Source: Okamejei kenojei
Lineage: Eukaryota
DNA: 64,000 bases
Direction: 5' to 3'
Assembly: GCA_035221665.1 (NCBI GenBank)
Contig: CM069145.1
Location: 7,688,001-7,752,000 of the forward strand
The position numbers and the translations under genes are program-made. The number at the start of each line of letters is the position of its first letter. The stretch's first letter is position 1. Positions 1 through 42,868 of the stretch are shown here, in pieces. Below the pieces are notes generated by a model. The model was not told the DNA's origin, did not search any database, and worked only from the letters and a program-made list of their open reading frames with translations.

Positions 1-1796
1 GTCCCTTGCAGTCAGAAACAGGTGAGTTGATAATGGGGAACAAGGATATGGCGGACCAATTGAATAACTACTTTGGTTCCGTCTTCACTAAGGAAGACAT
101 AAATAATCTGCCTGAAATAGCAGGGGACTGTGGGTCAAAGGAGGAATTGAGTGAAATCCAGGTCAGTCGGGAAGTGGTGTTGGGTAAATTGAATAGATTA
201 AAGGCCGATAAATCCCCAGGGCCAGATAGGCTGCATCCCAGAGTACTTAAGGAAGTAGCTCAGGAAATAGTGGATGCATTAGTGATAATCTTTCAAAACT
301 CTTTAGATTCTGGAGTAGTTCCTGAGGATTGGCGGGTAGCAAATGTAACCCCTCTTTTTAAGAAGGGAGGGAGAGAGAAAACGGGGAATTACAGACCAGT
401 TAGTCTAACATCGGTAGTGGGGAAACTGCTAGAGTCAGTTATTAAAGATGGGATAGCAGCACATTTGGAAAGTGGTGAAATCATTGGACAAAGTCAGCAT
501 GGATTTACAAAAGGTAAATCATGTCTGACGAATCTTGTGGAATTTTTCGAGGATGTAACTAGTAGCGTGGATAAGGGAGAACCAGTGGATGTGGTTTATC
601 TGGACTTCCAGAAGGCTTTCGACAAGGTCCCACATAAGAGATTAGTATACAAACTTAAAGCATACGGTATTAGGGGTTCAGTATTGGTGTGGATAGAGAA
701 CTGGCTGGCAAACAGGAAGCAAAGAGTAGGAGTAAACGGGTCCTTTTCACAATGGCAGGCAGTAACTAGTGGGGTACCGCAGGGCTCAGTGCTGGGACCC
801 CAGCTATTTATAATATATATTAATGATCTGGATGAGGGAATTGAAGGCAATATCTCCAAGTTTGCGGATGACACTAAGCTGGGGGGCAGTGTTCGCTGTG
901 AGGAGGATGCTAGGAGACTGCAAGGTGACTTGGATAGGCTGGGTGAGTGGGCAAATGTTTGGCAGATGCAGTATAATGTGGATAAATGTGAGGTTATCCA
1001 CTTTGGTGGCAAAAACAGGAAAGCAGACTATTATTTAAATGGTGGCCAATTAGGAAAAGGGGAGATGCAGCGAGACCTGGGTGTCATGGTACACCAGTCA
1101 TTGAAAGTAGGCATGCAGGTGCAGCAGGCAGTGAAAAAAGCGAATGGTATGTTAGCTTTCATAGCAAAAGGATTTGAGTACAGGAGCAGGGAGGTTCTAC
1201 TTCAGTTGTACAGGGTCTTGGTGAGACCACACCTGGAGTATTGCGTGCAGTTTTGGTCTCCAAATCTGAGGAAGGACATTATTGCCATAGAGGGAGTGCA
1301 GAGAAGGTTCACCAGACTGATTCCTGGGATGTCAGGACTGTCTTATGAAGAAAGACTGGATAGACTTGGTTTATACTCTCTGGAATTTAGGAGATTAAGA
1401 GGGGATCATAGAAACTTACAAAATTCTTAAGGGGTTGGACAGGCTAGATGCAGGAAGATTGTTCCCGATGTTGGGGAAGTCCAGGACAAGGGGTCACAGC
1501 TTAAGGATAAGGGGGAAATCCTTTAAGACCGAGATGAGAAAGACCTTTTTCACACAGAGAGTGGTGAGTCTCTGGAACTCTCTGCCACAGAGGGTAGTTG
1601 AGGCCAGTTCATTGGCTATATTTAAGAGTGAGTTGGATGTGGCCCTTGTGGCTAAGGGGATCAGAGGGTATGGAGAGAAGGAAGGTACGGGATACTGAGT
1701 TGGATGATCAGCCATGATCATATTGAATGGCGGTGCAGGCTCGAAGGGCTGAATGGCCTACTCCTGCACCTAATTTCTATGTTTCTATGTTTCTAT
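1..1796 (+). mobile_element. CR1-clade LINE, 3' part of ORF2 (reverse transcriptase) plus 3' UTR; young copy
   Basis: ORF 6..1430 has KSPGPD, NYRPVSLTS, YLDFQKAFDKVPH, GVPQGSVLGP, KFADD and RPHLEYCVQFWSP. One frameshift near 1407 continues into ORF 1435..1698 (WNSLP..VV). Ends in a (TTTCTATG)n tail. Confidence 0.95.
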
Positions 1797-2012
1797 TCCA
1801 CTGGGGTATAAGCTGCCCAAGCGCTATATGAGCTGTTGATCCTCCAATTTGTGCTGGGCCTCACTCAGACAATGGAGGAGGCCCAGGACAGAAAGGTCAG
1901 ATTGAGAATGGGAGGGGAAGTTAAAGTGTTTAGCAACCGGGAGATCAGGTAGGTTTAAGCAGACTGAGCGGTGGTGTTCAGCGAAACGGCCGCCAAGCCC
2001 GCGCTTGGTCAA
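1797..2012 (-). mobile_element. Penelope-like element fragment (GIY-YIG C-terminal part)
   Basis: Translation TKRGLGGRFAEHHRSV..DLPVAKHFN..H..SDLSVLGL matches the longer copy at 51577-51837. Confidence 0.85.
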
Positions 2013-2454
2013 GTTATTTCAAGCCGTATGGAATTTAATGCTGTTTGTTGCAAATAGGCTAATTTGCTGTTGCCAATGCGATAGAGTTGTTTTTCACAGC
2101 AATGCTATCAACTAAAAGGTAGCAAGTAACAACACATTCTAAACTATCTTTTCTGGTGTATTCGATCAGTCTGCATCCATTGGATTATTTGGTTTGATTG
2201 TAGCACCTTGCACTGAAACATTATTTCAAGACGTATGGAATTGAATGCTGTTTACTGACAATAGGATAATTAGCTGTTTCCAATGTGGTAGTTGTTTTTC
2301 ATAGCATGGCTATCAACTACAAGGTAGCAAGCAACAACATGTTCTAAACTATCTTTTCTGATGTATTTGATCATCGTACATCCATTGGAGTATTTGGTTT
2401 GATTGTAATACCTTGCACTTAAAGTTATTTCAAGACGTATGGAATTGAATGCTG
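2011..2454. repeat. Tandem repeat, ~206-bp unit, ~2.2 copies
   Basis: TTATTTCAAG(C/A)CGTATGGAATT(T/G)AATGCTG recurs at ~2014, ~2221 and ~2425, and the intervening sequences are similar. Confidence 0.85.
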
Positions 2455-3780
2455 GAGTAACTCAGTGGGACAGGCAGCATTTCTGGAGAGAAGGAATGGG
2501 TGACGTTTCAGGTCAAGACTAGAGCTGCCAAGTTTTGTCAGAACATTACAGTACTCTAGTACCTGAAAATCAATATTTTGCCGAGAAAATCAGTATTTTT
2601 ACGCAGTGCAATTTTGCTGAAAAAAGTTATGTTTTATGTGCAGTTATACCCATGTTAGAGTACAAGAATGCATAACTTTGCTACCAATTAACATGTCTTC
2701 TATGAACCTTACTGGACAGTGCATTCATTATCATCTTTGTATACTGCTGTTTGAAAGGGTGCTTCCTGCTTTTAGCACCAGATGTAGAAGCCATTTTGGA
2801 AGCCACCCTCTCCCTCACTCGCTCTCCCTCCTTCCACTTTTTCCCCTCCCTCTCTCTCCCCCCCTCCTTCCTTTTTTTCTCCCTCCCTCCTTCTTCCTCT
2901 CTCCCTCCCCTAACAGTCGGTAACCTACAGCGCTACGTGTAAAGCCCATAGCGCTATGTGTAAAGGCAATAACGCTCCAGGTGGGAGCGCAGTTTTTAGA
3001 ACCCATAGCGCTGTTAAGTTTAAATTCCCACGCATTAAACTGACAGCACTGTTTAAACCTGGAGCTGAACAGGGAGATCAAAGCGTACAAAAATAATTAT
3101 CCAAATCTTGAAATGTTAAATGCTAATAGATTTAATCTGCTATAAATTTTAGAGGTACAGTATGACTTTTTATATCCATGCATTTAAGCAGCAAGATGAA
3201 ACAGTAAGTCGGGTTAATTTTTTTAAAATCCGTATCTTACAAAGCAAATCCATACTTCCGTATTCTGATCGCATTTCCGTACAAAATACGGAAAATCCGT
3301 ACTACTTGGCAGCTCTGCAAGACCCTTCTTCAGACAGATGTCAGGGAGAGGGAGATACACAGATAAGGAAGTGTAAGATGTGAAAATAGGACACAGGGAA
3401 TGGAGGTGAAGGAAAATGTAGAATGAAGAAGGTAACAACAAAGCAAACAGATAAAATTCAGCCGGAGGCAGCAAGACTGGGGAACTAGGAAAGGGGGAGG
3501 GATGGAGAGAGAGGGAAAGAAAGGGTTACTTGAAGTTAGAGAAGTCAATGTTCATACCACTGGGGTGTAAGCTGCCCAAGCGAAATATGAGGTGCTGCTC
3601 CTCCAATTTGCACGGAGCCTCACTCTGACAATGGAGGAGGCCCAGAACAGAACGATCAGTGTGGGAATGGGAGGGGGAGTTACAGCGTTTAGCAACCGGG
3701 AGATCAGGTTGGTTTAGGTGGACTGAGCAGAGGTGTTGAGCGAAATGCTCTCCGAGCTGTCCGGCGAGACCAAGTGCAGG
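2450..3780 (-). mobile_element. Penelope 3' end (GIY-YIG tail plus hammerhead-bearing terminal repeat), split by a DNA transposon
   Basis: 2450-2519 joins seamlessly to 3324 onward (GGTCAAGAC/CCTTCTTCAGAC). ORF 3526..3804 has DLPVAKRCNSPSHSHTD..LEEQHLIFRLGSLHPSGMN. Confidence 0.85.
2520..3317. mobile_element. Non-autonomous TIR DNA transposon (hAT-like)
   Basis: TIRs TAGAGCTGCCAAG and CTTGGCAGCTCTG. 6-bp TSD CAAGAC at 2514-2519 and 3318-3323. Confidence 0.75.
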
Positions 3781-3799
3781 CTCGGTGGTCGTTTCTCTG

Positions 3800-4082
3800 A
3801 ACACCTACTTGAACAAAAGGAATAAATTTCAGTGCAAGATAAAATCCAGTAAAGTTCGATCAAAGGGTCTTCAATGAGGTACATAGTACTCAGGACCGCT
3901 CTCTAGTTGTTGGAAGGATGGTTCAGTTGTATACTGGGAAGAAACTGTCTCTGAATCTGGAGGTATGCGTTTACACACTTGTGTGCTTCCTGCCTGATGG
4001 GAGAGGGCAGAAGAGGGAGTGCCCTGGGTGAGACTCATCCTTGATTATGCTGGTGATCTTGCCGAGACAGCGTGGTGTAGAT
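3800..4082 (-). mobile_element. Rex/Babar-type LINE 3' fragment
   Basis: Reverse complement encodes a degenerate LPSGR...RFRDSFFP segment, similar to 20345-20730. Confidence 0.55.
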
Positions 4083-4489
4083 CAACTGTCCTCCACTCAG
4101 TATTCAACGTCCCCAATGATGCAGGATTACCAAATGGACATACTCCTCTTCAACAATCATCGAGATATTTCACTATGGCATATCCAGAAAAGAGGCCAAC
4201 TTTGGTGGTATTAGGCCGGAATTTGCTCGTTAATTGCAGTATGTTGTTTGCAGGTTAAGGAACGTCCATAATGTGGGATGTTTCTAAAAGTGTGATGACA
4301 GGATTTCAGGGCATGCATGTTCTTGTCAGAGTGATGGACAAGGAAGGTGGGGGGGTACGGAAATGTGTATATCAAAAGAAATTGATGCTCTGGCCAGGAA
4401 ATAGTAGGCATGGGACAGGTATAGGCAGTTGGGATCAAGTGTATCCCTGGTTGAATTTTGAGAACTGAGGAGCATACTTAAGGAAATCA

Positions 4490-6560
4490 GAGGGCAAAAG
4501 GGTGACACACAAAATAGCCCTGGCAGATAGTATTAACAGAAATCTTTTTTTTTAATTTTTTTAAGGGAAAGAAGTTGAAAGAGAAAATAGAGCCTCCCAG
4601 AATCCAAAGCAGTCATTACTGTGTGGAGCCACAGGAGATGGGCAAAGTTCTCAATGAGCATTTTTTCTTTTTTTTTTTTAACCATGGCAAAAGACATGAA
4701 GACTGAGGAATTTGGGACAGTTAATGGAAGTGTCCTGAGTAGAGACAGTATTACGGTCAAGGAGGTGCTGGGCGTCTGAAGCCGTGCAAAGATAGACAAA
4801 GCTCCCGGCCTGATCAGATATATAAGAGGACACTGTGGGAAGCGGGAAAATAAATTGCAGGCGCCCCAGCTGGGATATACAAATCATCATTAGATACGGG
4901 TGAGGTGCTGGAAGACCAGTGGCTAATGTTGTGTCTCTATTTAAGAAAGGTTGCAAGAAAAATCCTGGGAACTATACACCAGTGAGCCTAATATTTGTGG
5001 TAGGCAGGAGAGTATTCCGAGGGATAAGATATATATGTATGTGGATACAGCGACTGTTTAGGGATAGTTTTATATGCGGGACATCGTGTTTCAGGAATGA
5101 GTTTTTTGAAGATGTAACCAAAAATGTCAATGAGGGCAAAGCCTTATGTTGATTTTTTTGGATTTCAGCAAGGCATTTGATAAGGTTCCACATTGCAGGC
5201 TACTCTGGAATGTTAGATTGCATAAGAACCAGGGAGAGCTAGCCAAATGGGTAGAAAATTGGCTTCATGGAAAGAAGCAGAGTGATGGTGGAAGGTTGTT
5301 TTTCAGACCAGAGGCCTGTGACTTGTGATGCACTTCAGGGATCAGTGCTGGGCTCATTGATCTTTGCAGTTAATACCAATGATTTGGACGAGAATGTATG
5401 AGGCAAGATTAGTAGATCTGCAGATGGCACTATAGTGGATAGTATTGTAGATAGCAAAGATGGTTATCAAAATATTACGACAGGGTTTTCATCAGTTGGG
5501 CAAGTGGCTGAGGAATGGTCAATAGTTTACTGCGGATAAGAGAGGTGTTGCATTTTGGGAAGTCGAACCAGAGCAGGAACTTCACAGTGAATGGGGAGTG
5601 CGGTAGAGCAGAGGAATCTCGGAATGCAGGTACATAGTTCCTTGAAAGTAACATCACAGGTAGATAGGGTGGTTAAAAAGGCTCATCACAGGTAGATAGG
5701 GTGGTTAAAAAGGCTCTCGGCACATTGGCCTTCATCAGTCAGGGTGTTGAGTATAGAAGTTGGGGTGTTCTGTTACAGTGTACAAGACATTGATGAGGCA
5801 CCATTTGGAGTATTGTTGTCATTTTGGTCAGCCTGCTGTAGGAAAGGTGTTGTTAAGCTGAAATGTGCAGAGAAGATTTAAGAGGATGTTACCGGGACTT
5901 GCGTGCCTGAGCCACAGGGTGGTTGGAAGACTCGCCAACCACCCTGTAGCTCAGGCACGCAAGTCCCGGTAACATCCTCTTATTCTTTGAAGAGCAGGAA
6001 GATAAGGGGTGATCTTATTGAAGTGCGCAAGATCATGAGGGGAATACATTGGGTAGATGTACAGATTGTTTTACCCAGGGAATCAAAAACCAGAAGTCAT
6101 AGGTTTACGATGAGAGGGGGAAGATTTAATAGGAATCCGGGAAGAAACTTTTTCACATAGGGTGGTGGATATATGGAACAAGTTGCCAAAGAAGGGTACA
6201 CAAAATGCTGGAGAAACTCAGCGGGTGCACCAGCATCTATGGAGCGAAGTAAATGGAAGAAGGGTTTCGGCCCAAAACGTTGCCCATCTCCTTCGCTCCA
6301 TAGATGCTGCTGCACCTGCTGAGTTTCTCCAGCATTTTGTGTACCCTCGATTTTCCAGCATCTGCAGTTCCTTCTTTAACAAGTTGCCAGAGGAGGTGGT
6401 TGAGGCAGGAACTATAACAACATTCAGAAGACATTTGCACAGCAACATGGATATGAAAGGTTTAGAGGGATGGGCCACATGCAGGACAGTGTAGAATTCG
6501 TCTTGATCAGAGTGGGCGAGTTGGGCTGAAGGGCATGTTTTCATACTGTATTACTCTATT
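4490..6560 (+). mobile_element. Degraded CR1 LINE ORF2 and 3' end
   Basis: Fragments ANVVSLFKKG..NPGNY.PVSL, LDFSKAFDKVPH and WNKLPEEVVEAG, with many stops and frameshifts. 32-bp internal tandem duplication at ~5652-5715. Confidence 0.9.
6189..6377. mobile_element. Palindromic Penelope-derived short element nested in CR1
   Basis: Inverted arms (GGGTACACAAAATGCTGGAGAAACTCAGC... and ...GCTGAGTTTCTCCAGCATTTTGTGTACCC). 12-bp TSD AACAAGTTGCCA at 6177-6188 and 6378-6389. Confidence 0.85.
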
Positions 6561-8379
6561 GCATAGTTTTATCACAATGACTCATGTATACAATTTCATT
6601 TCATTAAACTTGTTCTTAAAATACTTTGCATTACTTCCTTTCTAAGTGTTTCAGCAACATTAAGTTTCAATTTCAATTTCTAAACCAGTTCAGAATCTTT
6701 GTCCAAACAAATCAATCATAAAGTCATTCAAGAATCTTTCATTGTTTTAATAATTATTTAAATTGAGAGATCAAGATCACAGTAAGAAAGGAGGTAATTT
6801 TATCCTAGGACATATGCCAACTCTCTGAAAGAGAAATCCATCTTTTGGTTTTACCTCTTCTCAAATATGCATCTTTACATGAGTCTTCCACTACACCTCT
6901 AGCCAAACTACATAAATTCCCCATTTTGTACAGAATCATAAAATGGAAAGGCTATGGTTGACAAACTGGTGGTTAACAAATTGAAAAAAAATCTCTTAAT
7001 ATGTTGCATATACAAACATACATGTTCCCCATCTTAACAACCCCTTTCCCATGTAAACAATTATATAATGGAAGGTACTATAAACCCTTGGGGGATACCC
7101 TCTGCCAAATATGCCTGAAGCTATTCAATCTCCTCCCTACAACATCCTGAAGCCGCGGTCTGGTAGGAAAGTGCCAATTTGGGCACTCCAAGACGCGGAG
7201 TGTGTTCGACCATCCCAACATCGGAGTTTGGAGCATCCCGACGAGAGGGCCTCTACATCGGGCCGTCCGTAGCAGCGGCTACGGAGGATTCATGGCCCAG
7301 ACCACGGGTGAACAAAGGAGGAGGACTGACTGAACTTTGTGCCTTCCACCTCAGTGAAGAATGTGGTGGATGTTTGTGTTAAATCTTATTGTGTATTGTG
7401 TATTCTTTTTAAGTGCATGTGACAAATAACATTGACTTTGGATGCAGTAAATCAAAAGCAAAATAGGCTGGTTTTAACAAACTGAAACTTCCAAGTCATT
7501 CATTTAATCACCAGTGTTGCCAGATGGAGTGTGCAGGTGCTCAAGAGAATTCCCTAACTTTCCCATACCCCATTTTAAATAACGTTAGTGGCACAGATTC
7601 TTTCCCACTAATCTGATCAAAAAACACTCCACTTAAATATTACTGTATCCAGCAGTTGAAAGACATGTTACCAAAAGTGTTCCTTATTATTCACTGTAGT
7701 AGCAAACAAAATCTTTGTTAAATGACAAATTAAATTAAACTTTGCAGCAGTGAAGATTCCTCTTCTATTTCCATTTTGACCATTTTGTTAACCACAGGGG
7801 AGTCTTTTATTGAATGAGGGTATCAAGCGATACACCTACATTGCAACAATAACAAGAAAGGACAGTTAGTCTACAGTGGGAGTTTGTATAAGCAGTGTGT
7901 TAAGTTTTCAGTTTTCTTAATAACTAATTATTCTTTGTTGATATCCATTATGTCTTGTATGAATCAGCTCTGCATACTGAAGACATTACTTGCCATAAAT
8001 AGCTTTGGGTTGCAGATCTTTCTGACTAAAGGATGATGCATTGATTTTCTAGATCACCACATGAACCAGAGAAAAATAAAAACATTAAATTATATTTACA
8101 ATGCAAAGCACTTTTCTTAAAATGTGTCCCAATGCATTTCACAACCTATTAGTTCTGAAAATTCTCTGCTCTCGTTGAGTAGGAAACACTGCAGCCAACT
8201 CGCAAACAAAATTTTCATGAACAACATGGTCAACCAAATATTGGATTTTTTCCTGTTTAGTTTCTAACCGATATACAAGAAAGATTTATTTGCCCCAAGT
8301 CCTGAACATATGCAATTCATTATTCACTGTCCAAAAGTCTTAAAAATAAAACCCATACACATTTAGTATTAAACCAAAG

Positions 8380-8525
8380 TGATTGGATTTGAATGGGTGT
8401 CAGTGGTTACAGGGAGAAGGCAGATGAATTAAGTTAGGAGGGAGAGATAGATCAGCCATGACTGAATGGCAGAGATTTGATGGGCCGAATGGCCTAATCC
8501 TGCTCCCATCATTAATTACATTATG
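8380..8525 (+). mobile_element. CR1 3' terminal fragment
   Basis: GATCAGCCATGA..GAATGGC..TGATGGGCCGAATGGCCTAATCCTGCTCC matches the CR1 3' UTRs at ~1705-1770 and ~33070. Confidence 0.75.
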
Positions 8526-9000
8526 AACAACAAAGTTCCCATGTCCAAGCAAAAATTGTAGATGGAAATCTACAAGAAATTGCTAGAAATGGTTAGCAAT
8601 GCTTTTTCTACAAAATCTACTTTTTGAATGCTTTATTTTGATTTGCTCAATAATCTATACTCAATGAAATCAGAATGAACAAAATAATTAATTGACATTT
8701 CTCAGTTTTAAAAAAAGTACTATAATTTCATAATAAAAACAGATAAAACTGAGGATCAGATGTTTTCATTTAAATATATACATTTCCTTGATTCAAACTG
8801 ATGAGAAATGCAGTTCTTCCTATTTTTAAAAAAATATCACCTCTATTGTACTTTAAAATGTATAATTACTATTCCAAGTATTGAACAATAAAAAGGTTAT
8901 CAATGGAATTGGAATGAGAATTACTGAAATTTAAGGTATCAAAATTCCTCATTTTAATTTTTTCCAACAATTATATTGCCCATTACAAAAAAACAATAAA

Positions 9001-9340
9001 AAGACACAAAGTGCTGTAGTATCGTCAGGCAGCATTTCTAGAGTACATGGACAGGTGACGTTTCGGGTCGGGACCCGTCTTCAGACTGATGTCACAAAAT
9101 GTTGGGAGTAATTCAGCAGGACAGGCAGCATCTATGGATAGAAGGAATGGGTGACCCTCGGTTTGAGATCTTTCTTCAGAAGAAGCAGCCTGTCTCGCTG
9201 AGTTACTCCAGCATTTTGTGTCTATCTTCGGTGCAAACCAGCATCTGCAGTTCCTTCTTTTACATTCAGACTGATTGCGGTGGGCTGCAAGAGCGGTGAA
9301 GGCAGGACAAAGCCCGGCAAGTGATAGGCAGATTGTTGAA
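9001..9340 (-). mobile_element. Two nested Penelope-derived hammerhead elements
   Basis: The inner copy is flanked by an 11-bp TSD TTCAGACTGAT (9080-9090, 9265-9275). The outer copy retains an intact core. Confidence 0.75.
9057..9084 (-). ncRNA. Minimal type I hammerhead ribozyme core (Penelope type), sense in MARCHF5 intron 1
   Basis: - strand reads CUGAAGA-C-GGGUCCCGACCC-GAAAC-GUC. Confidence 0.7.
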
Positions 9341-9708
9341 CAGACAATATTCCCTACCGTTAAATTAAAATGATGTTAATGTTTATAAATACTTAAAATA
9401 TTATAAATTCCCCAGGTTTAACTTGTATCATACCACACGGATAAGCAGTGGGTATTGAACTGATTATATAATAGGTAGAAAAATCTAATCTAACAGTAAA
9501 ATCAGAAATAAGAAATCAACATGTACGTCTTTCTAGGGATATATTTTGCTCATGCCCGGGACCAAAACCACAAGCGATAAGATCACTTCCAACCAAGATC
9601 TGTTCACACAATCCTATTCCAATACAAGAGAGCGTTTATGGGCCAGGATCGCAGGGAATGAAACGTTTTGTGAGCAGAGCGAGAGTAAATGAGCACTCGG
9701 ACACTCAC

Positions 9709-9758
9709 CTATCGAGCGGCTGGGACGGGGCAGGCACCAGCTCCGCGCCGTCCGACAT
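9709..9758 (-). CDS. MARCHF5: MARCHF5 (mitochondrial RING-CH E3 ligase MITOL), coding exon 1
   Basis: aagATG start, encodes MSDGAELVPAPSQPLD-R, phase-2 donor AG|GTGAGT. Matches the ...LDR| end of vertebrate MARCHF5 exon 1 and the head-to-head CPEB3/MARCHF5 arrangement known from human. Exon 2 is not in the window. Confidence 0.8.
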
Positions 9759-10245
9759 CTTCCAGCGATCCGCTCCCGCCGCTCGTCTATGTCAGGAGAT
9801 GCATGTGAAGGTTCGCGCTGGGCCTGGCGTGTGGCTTTAACCCCCCACCCACCCACAGCGATACGCCGGGGACGGTTCAGCAAAGAAAACAAAACGCCTC
9901 GGCGCGGACAAGCCCGCAGCGAGGGAGGGAGGGAGCGAGGGAGGGAAGGCGGCGGCGGCGGCGGCTGAACGCCCCGGCCCCGGCCCCGGCCCCGGCCTCA
10001 GCCTCTAGGCCCAAACACGCACCAACCTCCCTCGTGGGTGGGGTGGGGTGGGTGAAGGCGCCGATTGTTTGTATTTTACAACCGCCCGCTGTTTCCAGAC
10101 AGAAAGCACGACTCGCAGGCCCAGGCCGCGGCCTCCACTCGCTCGCTCGCTCGCTCACTGTGAGGGAATAATAGCGCCGAGACAACCGGAAGTGCGCGGC
10201 CGCCACTCATCAAGCGGGGCGGGCGGTCCGTGCCCCTGCCGCCGT

Positions 10246-10264
10246 GCATGCTGGGAGATGTAGT
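10246..10264 (-). promoter_or_regulatory. ZNF143/THAP11 SBS motif
   Basis: Reverse complement is ACTACATCTCCCAGCATGC, near consensus. A weaker copy in the opposite orientation (ACTGCATTTGCCGCAATGCA) lies at 10316-10335. Confidence 0.8.
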
Positions 10265-10269
10265 TCCAC

Positions 10270-10492
10270 ACCGCCGCGACGCCGCGCGGGGCCGCCCGAG
10301 CCCGACCCAGCCGGGACTGCATTTGCCGCAATGCACTGCTTCGCCCATCCAGGAGCACGAATGGGATCCTTCAGTCTAGGGTTTGCTTGGTCCTTGGTTA
10401 GATGGGTAAACCATTTGGAAGTTTGCGCTACCACCAGAACAGAATTGGCACATTTTTCTTACTTACAAACTAATTCAAAGGTTCATACTAAG
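10270..10492 (+). other. CPEB3: Candidate non-coding first exon of CPEB3 (start uncertain)
   Basis: Downstream edge of the CpG island followed by donor-like AAG|GTAACT at 10492/10493. Inferred only. Confidence 0.3.
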
Positions 10493-12211
10493 GTAACTCG
10501 TATTGGTTGTCAAGAGAAGAAGGGGCATCTGCAAGTAATCAGCTGCTAAATCCAGAATTACTTTTAAGGATGCATACAAAATATAAGCATGTTCTGACTA
10601 AATGTTAATTCTAGTACATGATTTGAAGACTGCGATAACGTTTGTTAATTCTCCATTGTCCAAACAATAAAACAATCATGTATTTTAATGATAAGATACG
10701 TTTCTTGTGACCTTAACTATTACAATATTCCAATTTGGCCTTTCTATCATAAAACAATGCTGCATAACAGGCTATGAATCTGGTTTTTAAAAAAGGGAGT
10801 ATGTGTCTATTAATGTCATATTCTTCTAATAACGATACTGTTTTGCTTAGTCCGGTTAACTCCGATTAATATTTTATTTGTAAAGCAGACCGTTTCTTGT
10901 TAGAATCGAAACATTGCCTACGTTTAAAAGAACAATTTATTTAGAAGAGCGTGTGTCGTTTACGCCCTGCTTGAGATAACTCATTTTTATTCTTCTCGCG
11001 TTTGGTATAGAACAATGAATGTGTCTTTTGCTGTATTTTGGGATTGCAGTCTCTTGCGTTTTTTTACTCTATACATTCCTAATCAAATTGAAACTGGCAA
11101 TATTTGACATGAATGTGGATGCGTGTTGACAATGACCTTGAGGGCCTGGTGTTGCTAACGATAAATAATTATTCTGTTTAAAATCCACGTGTATTTAAAC
11201 ACATGTTAATCTAGCGACGTTTTGATTTGATTGCTGACATGCATAGTTGTCAGATTTAAATTTCGATCTAATAGATGCCATTATAAAACATGGAAGACTT
11301 CTTTGCACATCGTCACTTTTTAATATATAATTTGTCCTTCAGAAAGTAGAATCAGGAGTTGTCCAATCGTCGTTTGCGTGCAATAACATGCACAAGGAGC
11401 CATTTTATATTAAAAAAAAACATAAATGGCGTAAATATACTGCACGAGAGACGACAATACGCAGGAGATTGTAGGAAATAGTAAAATGTCATAGTGCTCG
11501 GTCCTGGAAATCTAATTTGTGCCAGTAATATACAGACATGAATAAAACGGACAAGGTCATAAGTTACGTGTCAAATACGCCTTTGCTTCTATAAGGGCTG
11601 GTTGCTCCTTGATACCATTTATTTTGTATCGATGTGGTATTTTCAACAAATCGCTTGTTCGCTTAACAGTGGAGGTTAATTTTGGTGCAAAACTGGCTGT
11701 TGACTCGAATTGGGCAGGTTTCTGTTTCTGCACCTCTTCCTCGCCACCCCCCTTCCAGTTGGTCAGTGAGTTTAAATAAAATGCTGTATGGTGCCAGCAG
11801 CTGTAACACCAGATATTTATTTTAGATTGACTATGCGCCAGTGACAAAAAATATATCCCTTGGGCTTCGCTGGGCTGTAAATCTAACGTTAGATCTCGAA
11901 AATGATCGGGCGATTTAAAATTTAAAATGCATTTTAACCTTCTGAAGGACGCTGCACTATTTATTGACGTATGTAAATTAGCAAAGGGCTTTGAAAGCTC
12001 TTGAACAGGAACAAGAATCAGTTTCACATTGCGGGTGAGAGCTGAAGTTCCGGTGTAAAGAAAGACGTGGCGAAATTGGTGAATATCTGTGCCCGCATCC
12101 CAAATCTCTCATTCCGAGGGCAAACCAGAACACGAAAGGGTGAAGCTGCTCCTCCTTCTTTCAAAAGAGAACTATTAATATTGCCCCCACCCTCAACCAT
12201 CCCAAGGCTAA

Positions 12212-12736
12212 ATGGGGGATTACAGATTTGCTTTACAGTCATCTAGCAATAATACTGGATTTTCGCCGGCGCTGGAGTACCAGAACACAGCTAATAATAA
12301 CGCGTCTTTGTTTTTTCCCCTTTCAGCTCCGCAAACCATGCAGGATGATTTACTGATGGACAAAAGCAAACCCCAGCAGCTTTCACCAAGGTCAGAGCAA
12401 AGCACCGAAGCCGCAGAAACCCCCAAGTCAGAAGAGAGCTCTGTGAGTATAAACGCCCCGGTTTCTGCCCAGAATAAAGAGAAGACGCAGATGGAATCGC
12501 CAATTTTGCCCGGCTTGAGCTTTCAACCTCAGGAGCCTGGTACCTCCTTGTCCCCTTCGTTCAGTACGTGGTCCACCGGCACGACCAACACCGTAGATGA
12601 TAGCTTTTTCCAAGGGATCCCGCCAGTGAATGGGACAATGCTGTTCCAGAATTTCACTCACGTCAACCCGGTTTTCGGTGGCACTTTCTCGCCGCAGATC
12701 GGTCTGGCTCAGCAGACGCAGCACCACCAAGCCGCC

Positions 12737-12770
<34 letters not shown>

Positions 12771-13111
12771 GGAGGTCGCCGGTCAGCCCGCAGGCTCCCT
12801 TCGCCCAACGCAGCGCCTACAGCCACCAGCCCATCATGACAAGCAAGCCCTCCTCGGCTTGGAACAACCACCAGAACACGACCTGGAGCACTGCTCCCAA
12901 CCCTTGGAGCGGGCTACAAGCCAGGGATCCCCGGCGAGCTGTCGGGGTGCCATCCCCTCTCAACCCCATCTCTCCGCTAAAGAAACCCTTTTCCAGCAAC
13001 GTGATCGCCCCTCCTAAGTTTCCTCGAACTGCACCCACATTAAATCCCAAGTCTTGGATGGACGACAACGCCTTTAGGACAGACAACAACAACGGCATGT
13101 TGCAATTTCAG
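12212..13111 (+). CDS. CPEB3: CPEB3 first coding exon (disordered/prion-like N-terminus). Canonical start ATG 12338; in-frame upstream ATG 12212
   Basis: MQDDLLMDKSK, QMESPILPGLSF, DSFFQGI.PVNGTMLFQNF, VFGGTFSPQIGLAQ, PSPLNPISPLKKPFSSNVIAPPKFPR and KSWMDDNAFRTDN match CPEB3. Acceptor tttcag| at 12326/12327; phase-0 donor CAG|GTACAG. Confidence 0.96.
12737..12769 (+). repeat. CAA(CAG)10 polyglutamine tract (Q11)
   Basis: Directly visible and in frame. Confidence 0.95.
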
Positions 13112-16100
13112 GTACAGTAATGCGTCCTCGGATATTTTCTTCATAAACAGATGTACAAAAGACGTGATAGGACATGACCTTCACAGCCATATTGTAATGC
13201 CATCTTTATTGGGACATGACATTGCAGTGAAAATACCGCATCTGGTCTTTTCAGCAAGTCACTTCTAAAGATCAGCCCAAATGCATCCTCGATTCATATG
13301 ACCATGTCCTTGTCACTGTCTCACACCAAGATTCTTTGCGACCCCACCCCCACTACCAAGAGGAAAAACTGGCTGAAGAACAGTGGTCCCAGCTGTCTTT
13401 AACACTTGTTTAATTTATGCAACGTTTACAGTATGTTGCCAAGCATTTTTGGTTTTTTTTCTAAAATTGCCATTTTACGTGCCACTGTTCACCGGTTGAC
13501 TAAAGTATAATTAACGTAAACTGTCACATTGTTAAATATATGTTAATTTAGGACATTTCAGCGGCCGGCCTGTATTCAGAGCATTAGCTGTCGACAAGAC
13601 TGCCATCGGCTAGGCCCCCACTGCAGTCAGTGACATTACATTTATTGCAAAACCCTGTTAAAACCGCCTTTAATTTTCTCTAATTCATTTTGTCATTATG
13701 GCGACAGCTGACCCCCCCCCCCCCCCCCTTTTTTTTTAAGGCCGCTTTGTTTGGGCAATTGTTTTGACGTCAAACATTTAGAGGTGGAGCAAAATCGTGG
13801 ACCGTAAAGTACTGTATTCCAATTGTTATAAAGCAAAGGAACACTCATTTCTGTGTGCTTCTCACGTATTTGCTCTAGTTTATGCAGCATGGAACCAGGA
13901 TGTTGAGCAATAGACGTACCCATTCTATCCTCTATTAGTGGGCTTGGGCTTTTATCACTGATGTCCTTCCCTATATATTATATCATTATGCGTATTTCCA
14001 TACTATTTAAAAAACAAGACAGGCACACTTGGGTCAGAAGTTTTAAAGGTTGCTGGGATAATATCCTTTACTGTAAGAAGATACTTTGTAGCACAGAAAT
14101 TAATTGCAAAGTGGAGAGAGATTGGCACTGTGCACTATTGCGCAGGTGCTGAACAGATAATTCAAATTCTGCATTGCATTTACTTGTTAATGATGCATGC
14201 AAAAGCAAACAAAGTACTTAGGTGGCCTGAAGAATATAATGTTCTATACCTGGGTAATGTCAGCTATTGTTATGATGCTTTGTTATTGTGGTAAAGTATA
14301 ATCTGTTGACACGACACATTAAGATCCTAGATGCTGGTGTGTGTTTCATGGTCTGCATATGAACTTTGTTGGCCGACAATGTCAACCCCATAATTTCCAT
14401 AGATTTCAAGTTTCAATATTATTCCTGTTTAAAATGAACTCAAAATCATTCACAGAGGTTTGAGAATGGTTCCGTTTTGGAATAGTGAATTGACTCTAAC
14501 AAATAATTCTACAGCTCATTTTGGTTGTAGCAATTGATTTTGCTACATCTGACCTTGCTAAATGATATTGACTGTTATCATCACATTCACTATATTCTGT
14601 CAGCAAAATCTTCAATAATATTTTACTTTTACTGAGAGTAATACATCAGTAAGTTGCGTTAAATTGTATGTGTTGATATACAAAGCCAGTACTGCTCTGT
14701 GATGTGAAATGGAGGATGAGGAAATGGAGACCATGTATCAGTATTACATTTGCGTAGAAGTCTACCAGATGCTGATTAATTTTTGTAATTAAATGCGGTG
14801 CACCGTCTGGTTTACCTTTTTTAATTCACCTGTGGTAACCTATGCACCATTTCAAGGCTAAGGAAATTGTGTGTTTAGAAATACATATGTAATGTGCAAA
14901 ATTATGGTTGTTTCCAGGCAGATTATTGTCAAATTAATTCATTAACCGGGCAAACTAAAGTGACCATTTATTAAGTTATACAACTTGATTCATTTAATAC
15001 TCTAGATGTAGAAATCATTGTGAGATAGTTTTACTCAGATAATTGTACAATTCAGGGTTTTGACTGCAATCTTGGAACAGGACTAGTATAGCCAGATTAA
15101 ATGCGGTGTTTTGCTCTTGTCTCTGATCCAACTTAACTCTGCCCTGGGTTTGGTAGACTCAGTATTTGAATTAGTCCAGCAAAACACTGTTTGCTGATGC
15201 AGTAATTCAATAAGCTATGAAAATTGAGGTTAACAATCAGTCACAAGTCATGAATACTTACCTCTGTAGTGATGTGCTGGTGCTTCCAATGAAAAAAGTA
15301 AATGTTTTGAAAAAAATCAAGAAACATACACTGAGAGCTTGAGTATCTCTAGTGAGGATGTATAAATGTCAGTTGAGTAGATGGTAAGTTCTACATGCAT
15401 GAGATTGCTCGATTTAAAAAGGCCTTTAATAAGTAAGATGGTGGCTACTAGATGCAAAAACATGTTCTCTGTTAATCCAACACACAATTATAAACTGGAG
15501 CAACATTAGGGCAGATGACAATAAAATTGAATGTAAATTGTAATGTTAAAATTTCCCAATGTAAAGCCATTGATGTGGAATTATGTCAAAAACTGCTGAT
15601 TCCAATTAGAAGTTGTGAAGTGCATGCCCTGGGCATCAGGCCAAAAACTCAATCTTGCTGCTGCATCAATGGCTTCTGGACATCCATGTATCAGCAGTTA
15701 GTTGCCTTTGGTGTAGCAAATGTGTAGCAAATTTGTGATTTATTATGAATACAGGGAGCAATAACATACATTGGCTGCAAAGCCAGGCAAGAGTGCGAGG
15801 ATTAGAAAGAAATGGGTTACAGACTGAGGTGGATTCATTTGCTGCATCTCATTGTACCAAATAGAGGCTGTTGAAATATTGCTGATTCTGGGATTTTTTT
15901 ATATCTGAAATATCCAAGGAAATCTTGTGATAGAGGGCAGATCTCAGAAGGAGGGATCGTGGGATCATGCAGGGGAATTGTGAAGTTGGCAGGGAAAATT
16001 AAACTGGCTCAATTGAATCTTCATAGGATTTGGTAAGTGTGGGGTTGCAGAATCAATTATCATGTATGTGGTGGATTTGTAATGCAAAGGAAAACTGAGC

Positions 16101-33150: not shown

Positions 33151-34412
33151 TGCATTTATATTCACTTACCATTAAAATAGAACTGCACTCGTATTGCAAT
33201 TGAACATTTTGATTATATGGGAACACAAAAGAAATCTGCTCTAACAAAGCTACATTCATGGCAATAATTTGGAAATAATCAGAGAAAGATGTTTGCAAAT
33301 TGTTTGAATAATATATTAAAGCCAATTGATACTTCATTACATGTGCCCACGTTTTAAGACTATATTTCTTATGCAAAATATCTTTAGCCAAGCAAATTCG
33401 GAACAAAGTCCAAGTTGGACTGAGTTAGTTAATGTAGAAATTAATTCAAGCATGAAGCTATTAAATCCATATTTTTCCCCAAATTAGCCATTTAGGTTAA
33501 ATTGATTGGATGAGATTTTAAATTCTGAATACTAAAATCCACCATATCCATTTGAGAAGATAGCTCAATTGGAGTAAAGTGGGACAAACCACAGTATAAC
33601 CATTAGCAAGGCAATTTTCTTGAAATATTCTAGCATTTATCTTTCCAAGCACTATGTTTAGAGAGAGTTTATGCAATATGCTGTTTTATAATGAACAGTA
33701 TTATGTTTTAGATCCTTGAGTCATTCATTTCCCCAATCAATCCCAGCGTTTAATGTGTGTGTAACTAACAAATGTCCATTGATATAGAAGAGTGGATGGT
33801 CCTTTCCTGCAGACCTGATTATAAATGGGAAATAATTAAATTAATATATCCTAAATATGAGTATAACAATAAATGATGATAAGAATAAAGATAATAGTCT
33901 CGGGCTGTTTCCTGGTGGAAATCGTAAAGCTAGAAAACAGGAAAATTGCAAGAGTGTGCTCTTTCACTTCCATGGCAACATCTAAAATTAATGTTCATTT
34001 TCTTCCAGTCCTTTCCATATATTGTGCATAGTGAATTAAAAAGCCAATGGGGAATTAAGGATTAATTCATACAATGATATCTAACTTGATTTGCTGAGCT
34101 CATTCCTTCAAATCTGCTCAACTGCAGCAACTGATTTGGAAGCATTGGAATTATGCTAGTTGATAAATGACTTCTGAATTGTGATAATTATAGAGCTTGT
34201 GCTTGGCTACCTCTTAAAGGTAAGAAAGCAATTTTGTCATTGGGAAGTTCGCAAGTTATCCAACATTAAAACCCTAAAACAACCATTGCCCATTGAAGTT
34301 TTTGCAGCTTTTCAGAAATAACTTATAGGTTTCCATGGTTTTCATAATTCAGTGATGTATTGAAAAGTATTTGATACCAAGTGCCTCCAATACCCTCTCT
34401 TTTCAATTACAG

Positions 34413-34572
34413 GACCGGAATCGGCCCTATGATGCATTTAACTTGCACTCTTTGGAGAATTCCTTAATGGATATTATGAGGAGTGACCATGAACCTATGA
34501 AAGGTAAACACTATCCCCCCAGTGGCCCACCAATGACTATTGCCGACATAATGTGGAGGAATCACTTTGCAG
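34413..34572 (+). CDS. CPEB3: CPEB3 second coding exon (alternative donors at 34503 and 34572)
   Basis: ttacag| acceptor. Encodes DRNRPYDAFNLHSLENSLMDIMRSDHEPMKGKHYPPSGPPMTIADIMWRNHFA-G. Donors AAG|GTAAAC and CAG|GTTAGC, both phase 1. Confidence 0.95.
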
Positions 34573-36879
34573 GTTAGCAATTTTCTTTTTTTTGATGTGG
34601 ACAGTATTAAGTTTAAGTAATGCTTTGGTTTTTACATGCTATATGTGAGTTGCTGATCAATTCTCCAAATGATATGCAGTTGTTTCAGGTTCCACATCTT
34701 TCTTGCTTATGAATGTAAAATTACTTTGCAAATATATTTCGAGACTTTAAAAAAAAACGATTTCATAACTGCTATTCTAAATTAATCCATGAATTGAGTT
34801 AAATATTTTATTGTCACATGTGACAAATTGCTGTGATATTCTTTGCTTTCATACCCAAGATATACAAATAGTCGCCCATAAAGGGCGTTTCCAAAGTAAC
34901 AAATCCTCCCCCCTTGCACCAGGTTCTCCTTTGTTCTCCCCCCTCCCACCCTCACAGTAGTTCCCCCTACGCTGGGTCCTTTTTTCCTTCCCTCGGCAAT
35001 AGCATCCTCACTTCCGTGTGTCCGCTCCATACACTCATTCTTTGATTTCTCTTTGAGTAGACCAATGAGTGAGTAGGATCCCAAATGGTACTAAGTTTTC
35101 AGTTGAAAATTATTTTTCAGGAATAAGATCATTTTATCTCCAAATATTTCCGGCGTGCATTTTGCCATTTATCTTTTTTACAATCCTATTAGTTATAGGT
35201 TAGCCTTGGTTGTTGATTGCAGGAATATTTTTCCATTATTTCACGTCATTACACTATAACATATCTGAGTTCATGAAAGCCAATGATTAAATGTAAGCAC
35301 TTATTTTCCAAGTGGTTTCTTGCCAAGTTTTGATGATGTGGACCACCATTTTTGTACAGTTATTGTGGCAGGCAAAAAGAATACATTTTGCAGAAGAACT
35401 CGGACCATAATTGATACTAAAGGAAACTCTTGTCCGAAGGATTAATAACTACATAAAAGTAAAATATATGTATTATAGATGATGAGCATTAGAATTTTCA
35501 CTGAATTTTCACTTGAGACATGCTGTTTGCATTCAGTTCACAGGAAATGATAATTAATTTCACTTGGTAAAGCGTACACTAATTGTTGTTAAAACTTGGT
35601 TAACAAACAAATAACCCTCCTGTCTAATCTACTGATGAAATTGATTACATGCTCAAGCTGCAATTTGTTACCAGTCAAATTGTATTTGCTTTTAAAAAAA
35701 AAAGATAGTGTCAGAGTACTAGCATAAATATTGCTAACACGGTTAAATGGTATTTTAAGCAGTACCAAAGGTACAATTATATAAAAGATATGACAGTGAA
35801 GTGTCATCAGATATTGAAAGCATAAAGCTGGAATAGTTCAATTCTTCAAGATTTACTTGATTTAAGTATGCTATCATAAACCTAGCCCCAATAACTTTTA
35901 CTTTTGAAAGTTTTTTTGTACGTTTAAACACTGCAGTTTATTGTGTAAATTACTGAATGGAGTAGTATAAAAGTGTTGCGGGTTTTGGGAGCTGTCATTA
36001 ATTCCATTGTAGTATTAAAGATATGTGTCAATTTTAGTGGATTAAAAGTGACCACCAACCTTTAGTCTCTGAAATTGGAGAATGTACAGTAAATGTACAG
36101 TAGCTACTTACGACAGGATTAGGAATTCTGATTAATTTCAATGAGAGAAAGTGAATCCATATGTTAGAGGCCCGCCCTTGAAACCATATAATTACTTGTG
36201 CAGCAAGAAATATTTAGATGGATATTGTCACTGAATTAACATGGGAATGTGGGTAATGTGTTTTTTCTCAAGAAAGCATTTTGCAACAATAAAAAGGAAT
36301 TGAAGATTTATATAAATACAGCTGGAAGTTCAATCCATTCATTCGTCATTTCTAGCTGAGACGTAAAATCTATAGCAGAATAAGGGTCTTTGACCTAACC
36401 AGTCCTTGCTAACATTTGTGCTCCCCTTGAACCGTCTCATCTTTCCTCCTTTTCCGCATGACAGCGTAGCTCTCCAAAGCGCTCCCCTCCTCCTGTCCCT
36501 CCCCCCCTTTCTCTCATATGATTGTCGAATCTCCCCTATACTGGTCACTTCAGAAAGCCTCTGGTGGTTCCAACATTGTTCTGGGTGATCACTGGAAATC
36601 CAGTGTTGGTTCAGTTGATGGTTTTCATTGATCTGTTAAAAATTCTCCCCCCCCCCCCCCACCGGAATACCCTTCCCTTCTGGTGGCCACCTATCATACA
36701 AAATGCTCATTTCAAACTTGTAGCCTTATTGGCATATCACAGGCTCACCATATGGACACAGTGTGACAATCTCTCACTCTGACTAAATTTGGAGCATCAA
36801 CATTACGGATTGGCCTGTGGTGTATTTAATTCCTTCACCCCCAACGCTACATGGCTTGATCAAACCCTTTATACTGTAG

Positions 36880-41135: not shown

Positions 41136-42808
41136 TAATGAAGACGGGTGGAGATTTTGAGTGGATAAATGAGTGGAGAAACAGTTTCTCTTTCCACAGA
41201 TGCTCCCTGACCTGTTCAGCATTCCATCATTTCTATTTTTATTAAATGAATGACTCTGGATTGCTTTTGATAGCCACAGTTTGAAAGAAATAGTTTAAAG
41301 AAAAATGCCAATTTATAACTTTGAAAGTATAGCCAATAACCCTTTGTTTATGAGCATTTCACACAAAATAACAATAACTAATTTTACCAGTTCACTCATG
41401 GTACACATTTTTACACAACACTCCAAATGATTTACCAGAATAAATCATGCTGAACAGGCTGTCTATTAAATACAATACATTTTGTCTACCTCTGTCAGTG
41501 CCCAAGCACTCTTTGTCCTGACTAGTTCTGAATATTCTCTCAGTCCTGTTGCAGAACAAGGAGCATGTTTAGTTTAGTAATCTAAAGTTTAATTATAAAT
41601 GATACTTGCTGTCCCAGAGTGTACCTAGAACATTGTCTGATTAGTGCAGACCAAAGTTCAGATGTTACTTTCTGTATTACCAGAATAGAAATCATCCATT
41701 TATTGTGAACTTAAACCAATTATCTACTATTTTTTTTTCTACAAAAAAAACATGGACATGGTTGTCTTGATCAATTCAAGCATTTGCAAGCATATTAATT
41801 TGCATCCACTGCTGAACAACTGCATCTGCCCTGCAAACGTAATTTGTGTGTGTGTGTGTGTCCTCATCCCATTAGATAATGTTTTATAAACTACAGATAA
41901 TAAAATGTAATACTTGTGTTTTGATATTTAAAGTTCCCCCTCAATCCTGTTCTGTTGTCCCATTTTTAATCAAACTTTATTAAAGGGATGTAAATCATGT
42001 TGAAAGGATGTTGTTTTTATTTTCAGGTTGACCCTATGAATTCTTTAGTATAATTGGCAGAAGAATCTGACTGCTCTATACCCAATTCCCCATAGATCCC
42101 CAAATGGGAAGCATTGAATCCAGACTGACATTGAAATGGAAGTTTGATCTGTAGAGCCTAATATAACTTTGTGGAAAGTTTTTATTTAAATTGGAGTTGA
42201 AGGTCATTCCTTCACAGTTGTTAACAAAATCAGAACAAATAAAATTTCATTTGCAGATCTTTCCACCTTGCTTTGCCAATAGACTTCGAACGGATCATTT
42301 TGTAAATCAGACATTGATAAATGTTATAATATTTCTTGTTTGTGCATTACGATTTGCAATGTTATTTTTGACTGTTTAATTGCTGGAAACATCTTTAATT
42401 TTGAGTTTGTATTTTTTGCAATTCTAATTGGTTTTAAAATGAAAAGACTAGAACATGATAAATCAATATTTTGCATTGTATGTCAAGCGAAGATGTGACT
42501 TATCTAAACATATTATCCTATCAATGTTGAGGTGCAGTAATATCTCTCGTTACCACCTAACTATATTTAATATGGGACTAAAGTTTTTCCAAGCAGATTA
42601 TCTTTTTCATGCGGATTTTTGGATTGTGATATTGATTGAATAAGGGAACGAGTCATCTTTGTCTCTGAATTAACATAAAATATCAATTTTTAGTTCAACT
42701 TGAATTTGATTGAATGCCATCAGGATTACTGACTTGTTGCTTAACCTTGAAATACCATCTTTTAATTGCTTAAAAAGAAGAAATTGAAGTACCTATTTTA
42801 TTTTACAG

Positions 42809-42868
42809 GACGCTTGGGCCTTAATTTTCCGCACCCTGGTACAGATAATCTTGTGGCATTAAATAACA
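42809..42868 (+). CDS. CPEB3: CPEB3 third coding exon (60 nt)
   Basis: ttttacag| acceptor. Encodes (G)RLGLNFPHPGTDNLVALNN, compare human GRMGINFHHPGTDNIMALN. Donor A|GTAAGT, phase 1-1. Confidence 0.93.

Follow-up and report, generated by a model that had tools for sequence, protein, structure and literature searches.

CPEB3 is a leading candidate for a prion-like memory protein. Its residues are numbered from MQDD, the M1 of the short form, in the available text of PMC9166367 and PMC2807433. The closest described N-termini are those of CPEB4 and CPEB2: human nCPEB4, in the accessible part of its preprint (bioRxiv 10.1101/2023.03.19.532587), and the proteins P0125, P0126, P0127 and P0281 begin with MG[D/E][Y/F]xF, pass through a variable middle to (S/W)LF and reach [M/I]QD[D/E], as does the extension that we describe here for CPEB3. 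Ray CPEB2 shares ASLFFP with this extension. The two cases differ in that the motif is the annotated start of CPEB4 and CPEB2, whereas for canonical CPEB3 it is intronic.

A second comparison is the Drosophila pair Orb2A/Orb2B, which, according to the portion of PMC12415542 available, belongs to the same subfamily and has two N-terminal forms, one of them controlled by 5' intron retention, a likeness to the arrangement proposed here for CPEB3. However, the short start is peculiar to Orb2A, whose unspliced RNA does not code for protein; short CPEB3, by comparison, is nested within the long form, and in its case the RNA left unspliced would encode a longer protein. Its first residue is a Met within the putative long protein, so it has no N-terminal peptide of its own, unlike one member of an Orb2A/Orb2B-type pair. 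The same 2025 review, in its available text, contrasts vertebrate CPEB3, which 'appears to work in isolation', with Orb2A/Orb2B (PMC12415542).

For mouse Cpeb3, the accessible text of PMC2807433 reports three alternative first exons spliced to the first coding exon, which resembles the arrangement found here, and the residues before the Met in one cDNA record (QQAAQT) mark the same acceptor. That text describes no upstream in-frame start and calls the extra residues a prediction artefact. RefSeq and UniProt do hold predicted long CPEB3 proteins with the same extension and the same MQDDLL junction (P0005 from lungfish, P0018 from lynx, P0034 from macaque and P0068 from spiny mouse). These are automated models that carry no comment, and we saw none for cartilaginous fish. 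Hence, a long CPEB3 is already present, unremarked, in the automated annotations of many species. In the mostly open-access literature searched, we found no account of this form, and the string 'mgdygf' occurred in the CPEB4 preprint only; supplementary alignments of PMC9166367, PMC9465852 and PMC11965684 may be relevant here. A second, longer CPEB3 protein is likely made and has apparently been missed by CPEB3 studies.

The first coding exon of CPEB3 in the window

The window, by which we mean the whole 64,000-nucleotide stretch of DNA analysed, contains a gene that by its sequence is the CPEB3 of a cartilaginous fish. Its first coding exon is 94% identical over 258 residues to Scyliorhinus CPEB3 and 98% identical over 98 residues to that of Heptranchias, vs 46-49% for named CPEB2 and CPEB4. 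Two further CPEB3 exons fall in the window downstream, and the orthologues carry the domains RRM_7, RRM_1 and CEBP_ZZ. Among the names attached to related proteins, those of P0008, P0124 and P0284 are likely wrong: a bichir 'CPEB4' has CPEB3 sequence, and a whale-shark 'CPEB3-like' protein is near ray CPEB2. The features of the coding part are as follows.

12209-12211, + strand: in-frame TAA immediately 5' of ATG 12212
12212-12337, + strand: ancestral N-terminal extension of 42 codons (MGDY...SLFF...QT), from frame and homology
12291-12295, + strand: CTAAT, a candidate branch point by its likeness, overlapping the Asn codons of the extension
12305-12326, + strand: pyrimidine tract and acceptor AG, which also encode SLFFPLS of the extension
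12327-13111, + strand: first coding exon of canonical short CPEB3, with the second ATG at 12338 and donor GT at 13112 (94% identity to residues 1-252 of Scyliorhinus CPEB3)
34404-34574, + strand: next CPEB3 coding exon (approximate, tblastn)
42799-42867, + strand: 23-codon CPEB3 exon (approximate, tblastn)

The original prediction had claimed that ATG 12212 begins a 42-codon frame without stops that is in phase with MQDDLL, and that the same bases hold CTAAT at 12291, a pyrimidine tract and an AG at 12325-12326. We found all of these, and the frame extends on through ATG 12338 to the donor GT at 13112. The start of human CPEB4 given there is the same as the sequence printed in the accessible part of the preprint (bioRxiv 10.1101/2023.03.19.532587). 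Sixteen of the 17 bases before AG 12325-12326 are pyrimidines, which ranks it top among all AGs in 10400-12330. ATG 12212 is the first ATG past 11971 (none in 11972-12211), and the extension has no internal ATG. Its context is weak, with T at -3 and G at +4. Hence, given the TAA at 12209-12211, the frame starts exactly at the conserved Met.

Open frames this long occur commonly: 13.4% (2471/18474) of the window's intronic 42-codon frames lack a stop. Hence, the frame alone is weak evidence and the case depends on homology. No Pfam family covered the motif region in any of the six proteins scanned, and Rfam gave no match within the window. A CAG-encoded run of 12 glutamines lies mid-exon at 12735-12770. 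The Q-rich position is described as shifted in lower vertebrates in the available text of PMC9166367.

The N-terminal extension across vertebrates and the CPEB2/3/4-Orb2 family

We compared the 42 residues with the extensions of lungfish, coelacanth, lynx, macaque and electric-eel CPEB3 and found z scores of 12-15, with 0 of 1000 shuffles as high. Outside CPEB3, the scores were 7.0-7.9 for vulture and turtle CPEB4, ray CPEB2, acorn worm, tick and pseudoscorpion (0/1000 each). A wider set that adds five unnamed proteins gave z of about 6-9, most of it significant without the first four residues; caecilian CPEB2 scored 4.2 and lost significance without these residues (179/1000). The matches came from a phmmer search of cluster representatives (45 matches) and from an invertebrate profile search limited to proteins of 715-2040 residues (4 matches), which supplied ray CPEB2. 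Querying the ESM Atlas with tick residues 1-60 returned no usable match.

By phmmer and name look-ups, the same layout occurs in bird and turtle CPEB4, caecilian CPEB2, Saccoglossus, pseudoscorpion and tick Orb2, and the five unnamed proteins. The extension fits a CPEB2/3/4-Orb2 pattern of an MG[DE][YF]xF start, an SLF motif and then MQD[DE], and the entire first exon is homologous across the family up to its end near 'FQ'. Invertebrates, CPEB2 and fish CPEB4 share the second Met, which amniote CPEB4 replaces with Ile. Hence, this Met predates the CPEB3 acceptor. Together the comparisons support the 42 residues as the ancestral CPEB2-4 N-terminus. The accessible part of PMC10284499 states that there is no recognisable conservation between phyla outside the RNA-binding domain; contrary to this, the motif is recognisable from ticks and acorn worm to mammals. 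Hence, it may be a conserved site of interaction or regulation throughout the CPEB2 subfamily.

Among the 120 CPEB3 proteins listed from 245 matches, 54 have the long MGDY...SLFF...QT start, 30 start at MQDD and 36 have other leaders, with the reservation that annotation by its nature yields in-frame proteins and that a predicted model does not prove a transcript. The 54 represent 41 species among the matches listed: lungfish, coelacanth, bichir, 19 teleosts and 19 mammals, the last including gibbon, macaque, marmoset, cat, pig, cattle, bats and spiny mouse. Neither human nor house mouse was represented by a named CPEB3 among these matches. P0205, an ORF closest to gibbon, is identical over the exon to P0179 and has an open frame; the rodent-like gene calls P0218 and P0220 begin part-way in and are uninformative.

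The 35 distinct extensions are 50-63 residues long, and all preserve the frame. Their first nine and last 14 residues are mostly conserved, whereas residues 21-27 share 0-3%. Conservation reaches 94-100% at M1, D3, F6, A7 and Q9, which lie at least 55 nt 5' of the branch point. In seven mammals the extension is 72-98% identical vs 84-100% over the following 100 residues; cattle and spiny mouse extensions diverge faster. An open in-frame extension occurs in eight of 15 hand-grouped jawed-vertebrate lineages, where a freely drifting middle would stay open and in frame about 9-12% of the time (rough binomial p of 3e-5 to 4e-3, against a chance set at 10-20%). The extension in the window is shorter, at 42 residues, than those of the predicted long models, and its middle is closer to the invertebrate one (FSPxxEY vs LSPxEF).

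The long start is absent from all 22 named shark and ray CPEB3 models, with 15 of the 53 members of the main cluster listed. P0198, the one shark-type long ORF, carries the identical 42 residues; its sole difference from the window is a glutamine run shorter by two residues. It is a gene call that extends into intronic sequence and matches the window almost completely, and so is not independent. Among the matches listed, a long model was likewise not seen for frogs, caecilians, birds, sturgeons or salmonids. In two elephant species (P0103, P0104 and P0107) and in pika (P0112) the region is in another frame, as judged from the peptides; the leader of boa P0025 is altered, and newt P0099 has an open frame without the motif. 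These appear to be independent losses or decay of the long frame, and as such would be natural knock-outs for comparative work.

Upstream exons and the age of the acceptor

Leader peptides of annotated isoforms from relatives place several exons 5' of the acceptor.

10272-10396, + strand: distal first exon in a CpG island, likely donor GT 10397 (Narcine and Mustelus leaders, 10272-10376)
10701-10769, + strand: alternative 5' exon, given by the extent of the match (Rhincodon isoform leader)
11394-11451, + strand: alternative 5' exon, given by the extent of the matches (Cetorhinus isoform leaders)
11994-12139, + strand: proximal 5' exon, given from the first matched base, likely donor GT 12140, alternative 12079 (homology to python and teleost first exons)
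12064-12072, + strand: the 9-mer GACGTGGCG, 148 nt 5' of ATG 12212
12140-12326, + strand: predicted 187-nt intron containing ATG 12212 and 38 extension codons

All mapped leaders, from annotated shark, ray, teleost, python and mammal isoforms, join right before the last 3-4 residues of the extension. Hence, their common junction marks the position of the acceptor. At least four distinct leaders are joined there in the annotated isoforms of relatives. The proximal exon is supported by python and teleost leaders (P0265, P0115, P0090 and P0094) that map to 11994-12095. Its donor positions come from homology of short leader peptides: 12140 fits the leader ends of python and several teleosts and 12079 those of two teleosts, and both are, in our judgement, weak matches to the consensus. 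Three short upstream ORFs of 7, 25 and 1 codons lie at 11902-12004, 5' of the proximal exon; they are relevant only if transcripts begin that far upstream.

Exitrons are intronised coding sequence and, strictly, have both splice sites within one coding exon. CPEB3 would resemble them in that old coding sequence was turned into a conditionally spliced intron. It falls outside the strict definition, since the donors (predicted at 12140, 12079 and 10397) lie 5' of the first ATG and only the acceptor is within coding sequence. Hence, with donors in 5' UTR exons, splicing removes the start codon itself.

A metagenome scan yielded seven invertebrate-type loci, of which two without the N-terminus were dropped; in the five informative loci, which are related to each other, the extension is coding. 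From the SLF codons to the second ATG, all five lack an AG. Hence, the pyrimidine-rich codons predate the acceptor, which likely arose inside coding sequence. At the level of sequence, the ancestral coding region certainly overlaps the acceptor used in the annotated isoforms of relatives. The locus would also serve as a well-defined case, one that can be dated, of pyrimidine-rich codons co-opted as a splice acceptor. We rejected a pan-bilaterian acceptor suggested by the recurring [STP]-[ADE] pair after LF, as the AG occurs in 0/5 informative loci.

These results bear on the original prediction as follows. That the acceptor serves short forms holds, with other first exons joined before the last 3-4 residues in relatives' isoforms. 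The idea that this lineage retains the ancestral CPEB2-4 N-terminus is right about ancestry, but the lineage is not special, as the extension occurs in 41 species, 19 of them mammals, and predates vertebrates. A short start created by an acceptor inside coding sequence stands for the acceptor, given the five invertebrate loci, but not for the second Met, which is older. Two promoters was too simple a scheme for at least four alternative first exons upstream, the proximal one with its own donor.

Selection was measured by dN/dS in the invertebrate loci only, and for vertebrate CPEB3 was judged from protein and frame. Five of the six pairs among L002-L005 had dN/dS of 0.09-0.11, and the sixth differs by one synonymous change. 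The invertebrate extension is more conserved than the remaining exon (0.69-0.94 vs 0.50-0.89), and synonymous change within it is below that downstream in 6/6 pairs (0.16-0.50 vs 0.32-0.59). Similarity of the window (12212-12320) to L002-L006 is also high in the DNA, third positions included. The low synonymous change and the third-position likeness hint at overlapping nucleotide constraint. A hairpin that RNAalifold proposed between the MGDY and SLF codons was rejected, with z from -0.7 to +1.6 in 5/5 sequences and 0/10 pairs changed on both sides.

Possible routes to a long CPEB3

We are fairly confident that the extension is still translated, whichever route leads to it. The specific reading that we favour, with some confidence, is that the 42 codons are the original CPEB2/3/4-Orb2 N-terminus and are translated from proximal-promoter transcripts that retain the predicted 187-nt intron. 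The lack of any ATG in 11972-12211 and a CpG o/e of 0.65-1.4 across 10801-12300 speak for it. The ancestral gene would have had one large first exon comprising the 5' UTR, the MGDY start, the second Met and the whole disordered domain to the 'FQ' end. In the CPEB3 line, an AG arising right after the pyrimidine-rich SLFF codons would have become an acceptor, upstream exons would have come to skip the first ATG and join ahead of the old second Met, and the short form would have become canonical. When the weak donor at about 12140 is unused, the intron would be kept and the long form made; when the intron is spliced, the short form would result. Since ATG 12212 has a weak context, some ribosomes would move past it to ATG 12338. 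Distal exons would yield the short form only, unless the weaker AGs at 12166-12169 or 12205-12206 were used. Hence, given that the proximal exon has its own donor, the long form likely hinges on a splicing choice.

It is unlikely, in our view, that the extension is an untranslated relic whose bases were kept as branch point, pyrimidine tract and intronic or promoter elements, with long models derived from unspliced pre-mRNA or ab initio extension. The 22 named chondrichthyan models that all lack the extension, the apparent frame breaks in elephants, pika and boa, and the MQDD start as the only one used in the available text of PMC2807433 and PMC9166367 fit a relic, and the slower synonymous sites of the invertebrate extension hint at the DNA-level constraint that it invokes. 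However, splice signals account for just the last ~15 codons, and the unconserved middle varies by whole codons and is stop-free in 41 species. A real long form might also arise otherwise, by splicing of distal exons into AG 12166-12169 or 12205-12206 or by a start site within the small intron, as the two promoters of the original prediction would imply. These AGs are preceded by 13-14 pyrimidines in 17 bases, and the region is CpG-rich. We saw no annotated leader that joins either AG, however, and the conserved proximal exon continues ATG-free directly into the intron, which makes such a route quite improbable.

An acceptor as old as the motif would mean a long/short switch in the bilaterian ancestor, with paralogues differing only in its use. 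Starts are annotated at either Met in tick (P0160/P0169) and pseudoscorpion (P0148/P0166) Orb2, and MQD starts are listed for a whale-shark CPEB2-type protein and fish CPEB4a. We nonetheless hold this to be very improbable, given the lack of an AG in the five invertebrate loci and a sole tick model with a different leader that joins before SALFF, not after. On the chelicerate Orb2 annotation, both Mets may have been in use before the vertebrate acceptor existed.

On the favoured reading of intron retention, the extension would place an aromatic motif (Y, F, F, F) before the prion-like domain, and our guess is that it alters partner binding, N-terminal processing or condensation. If the long form is real, it adds ~50 residues before the mammalian aggregation region, so constructs and N-terminal tags may miss a native isoform. 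That CPEB3 forms an Orb2A/Orb2B-like pair, in which regulated retention of the small 5' intron sets the ratio of a long form with the bilaterian-wide N-terminal motif to the canonical short form, and this ratio tunes neuronal condensation or amyloid in sharks and primates, is a long shot.

The 9-mer GACGTGGCG, which resembles an ATF/CREB/XBP1-type site, also lies ~80 nt 5' of the homologous ATG in three of the five invertebrate loci (L002, L004 and L006; absent from L003 and L005). It is the sole 9-mer common to the 250-nt upstream regions of L002 and L006. In the window it occurs in 1/255 tiles, that preceding ATG 12212, and it was found post hoc.

Farther upstream, a short minus-strand coding exon at 9711-9760 (MSDGAELVPAPSQPLDR, then a GT donor) is directed away from CPEB3. 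We take it to resemble MARCHF5 exon 1; a RING exon of this candidate was not found in 1-9700 of the window. A CpG island spans 9600-10500, and what we assume to be a ZNF143-like site lies near 10251. Together, the minus-strand exon, the CpG island and this site look like a bidirectional promoter.
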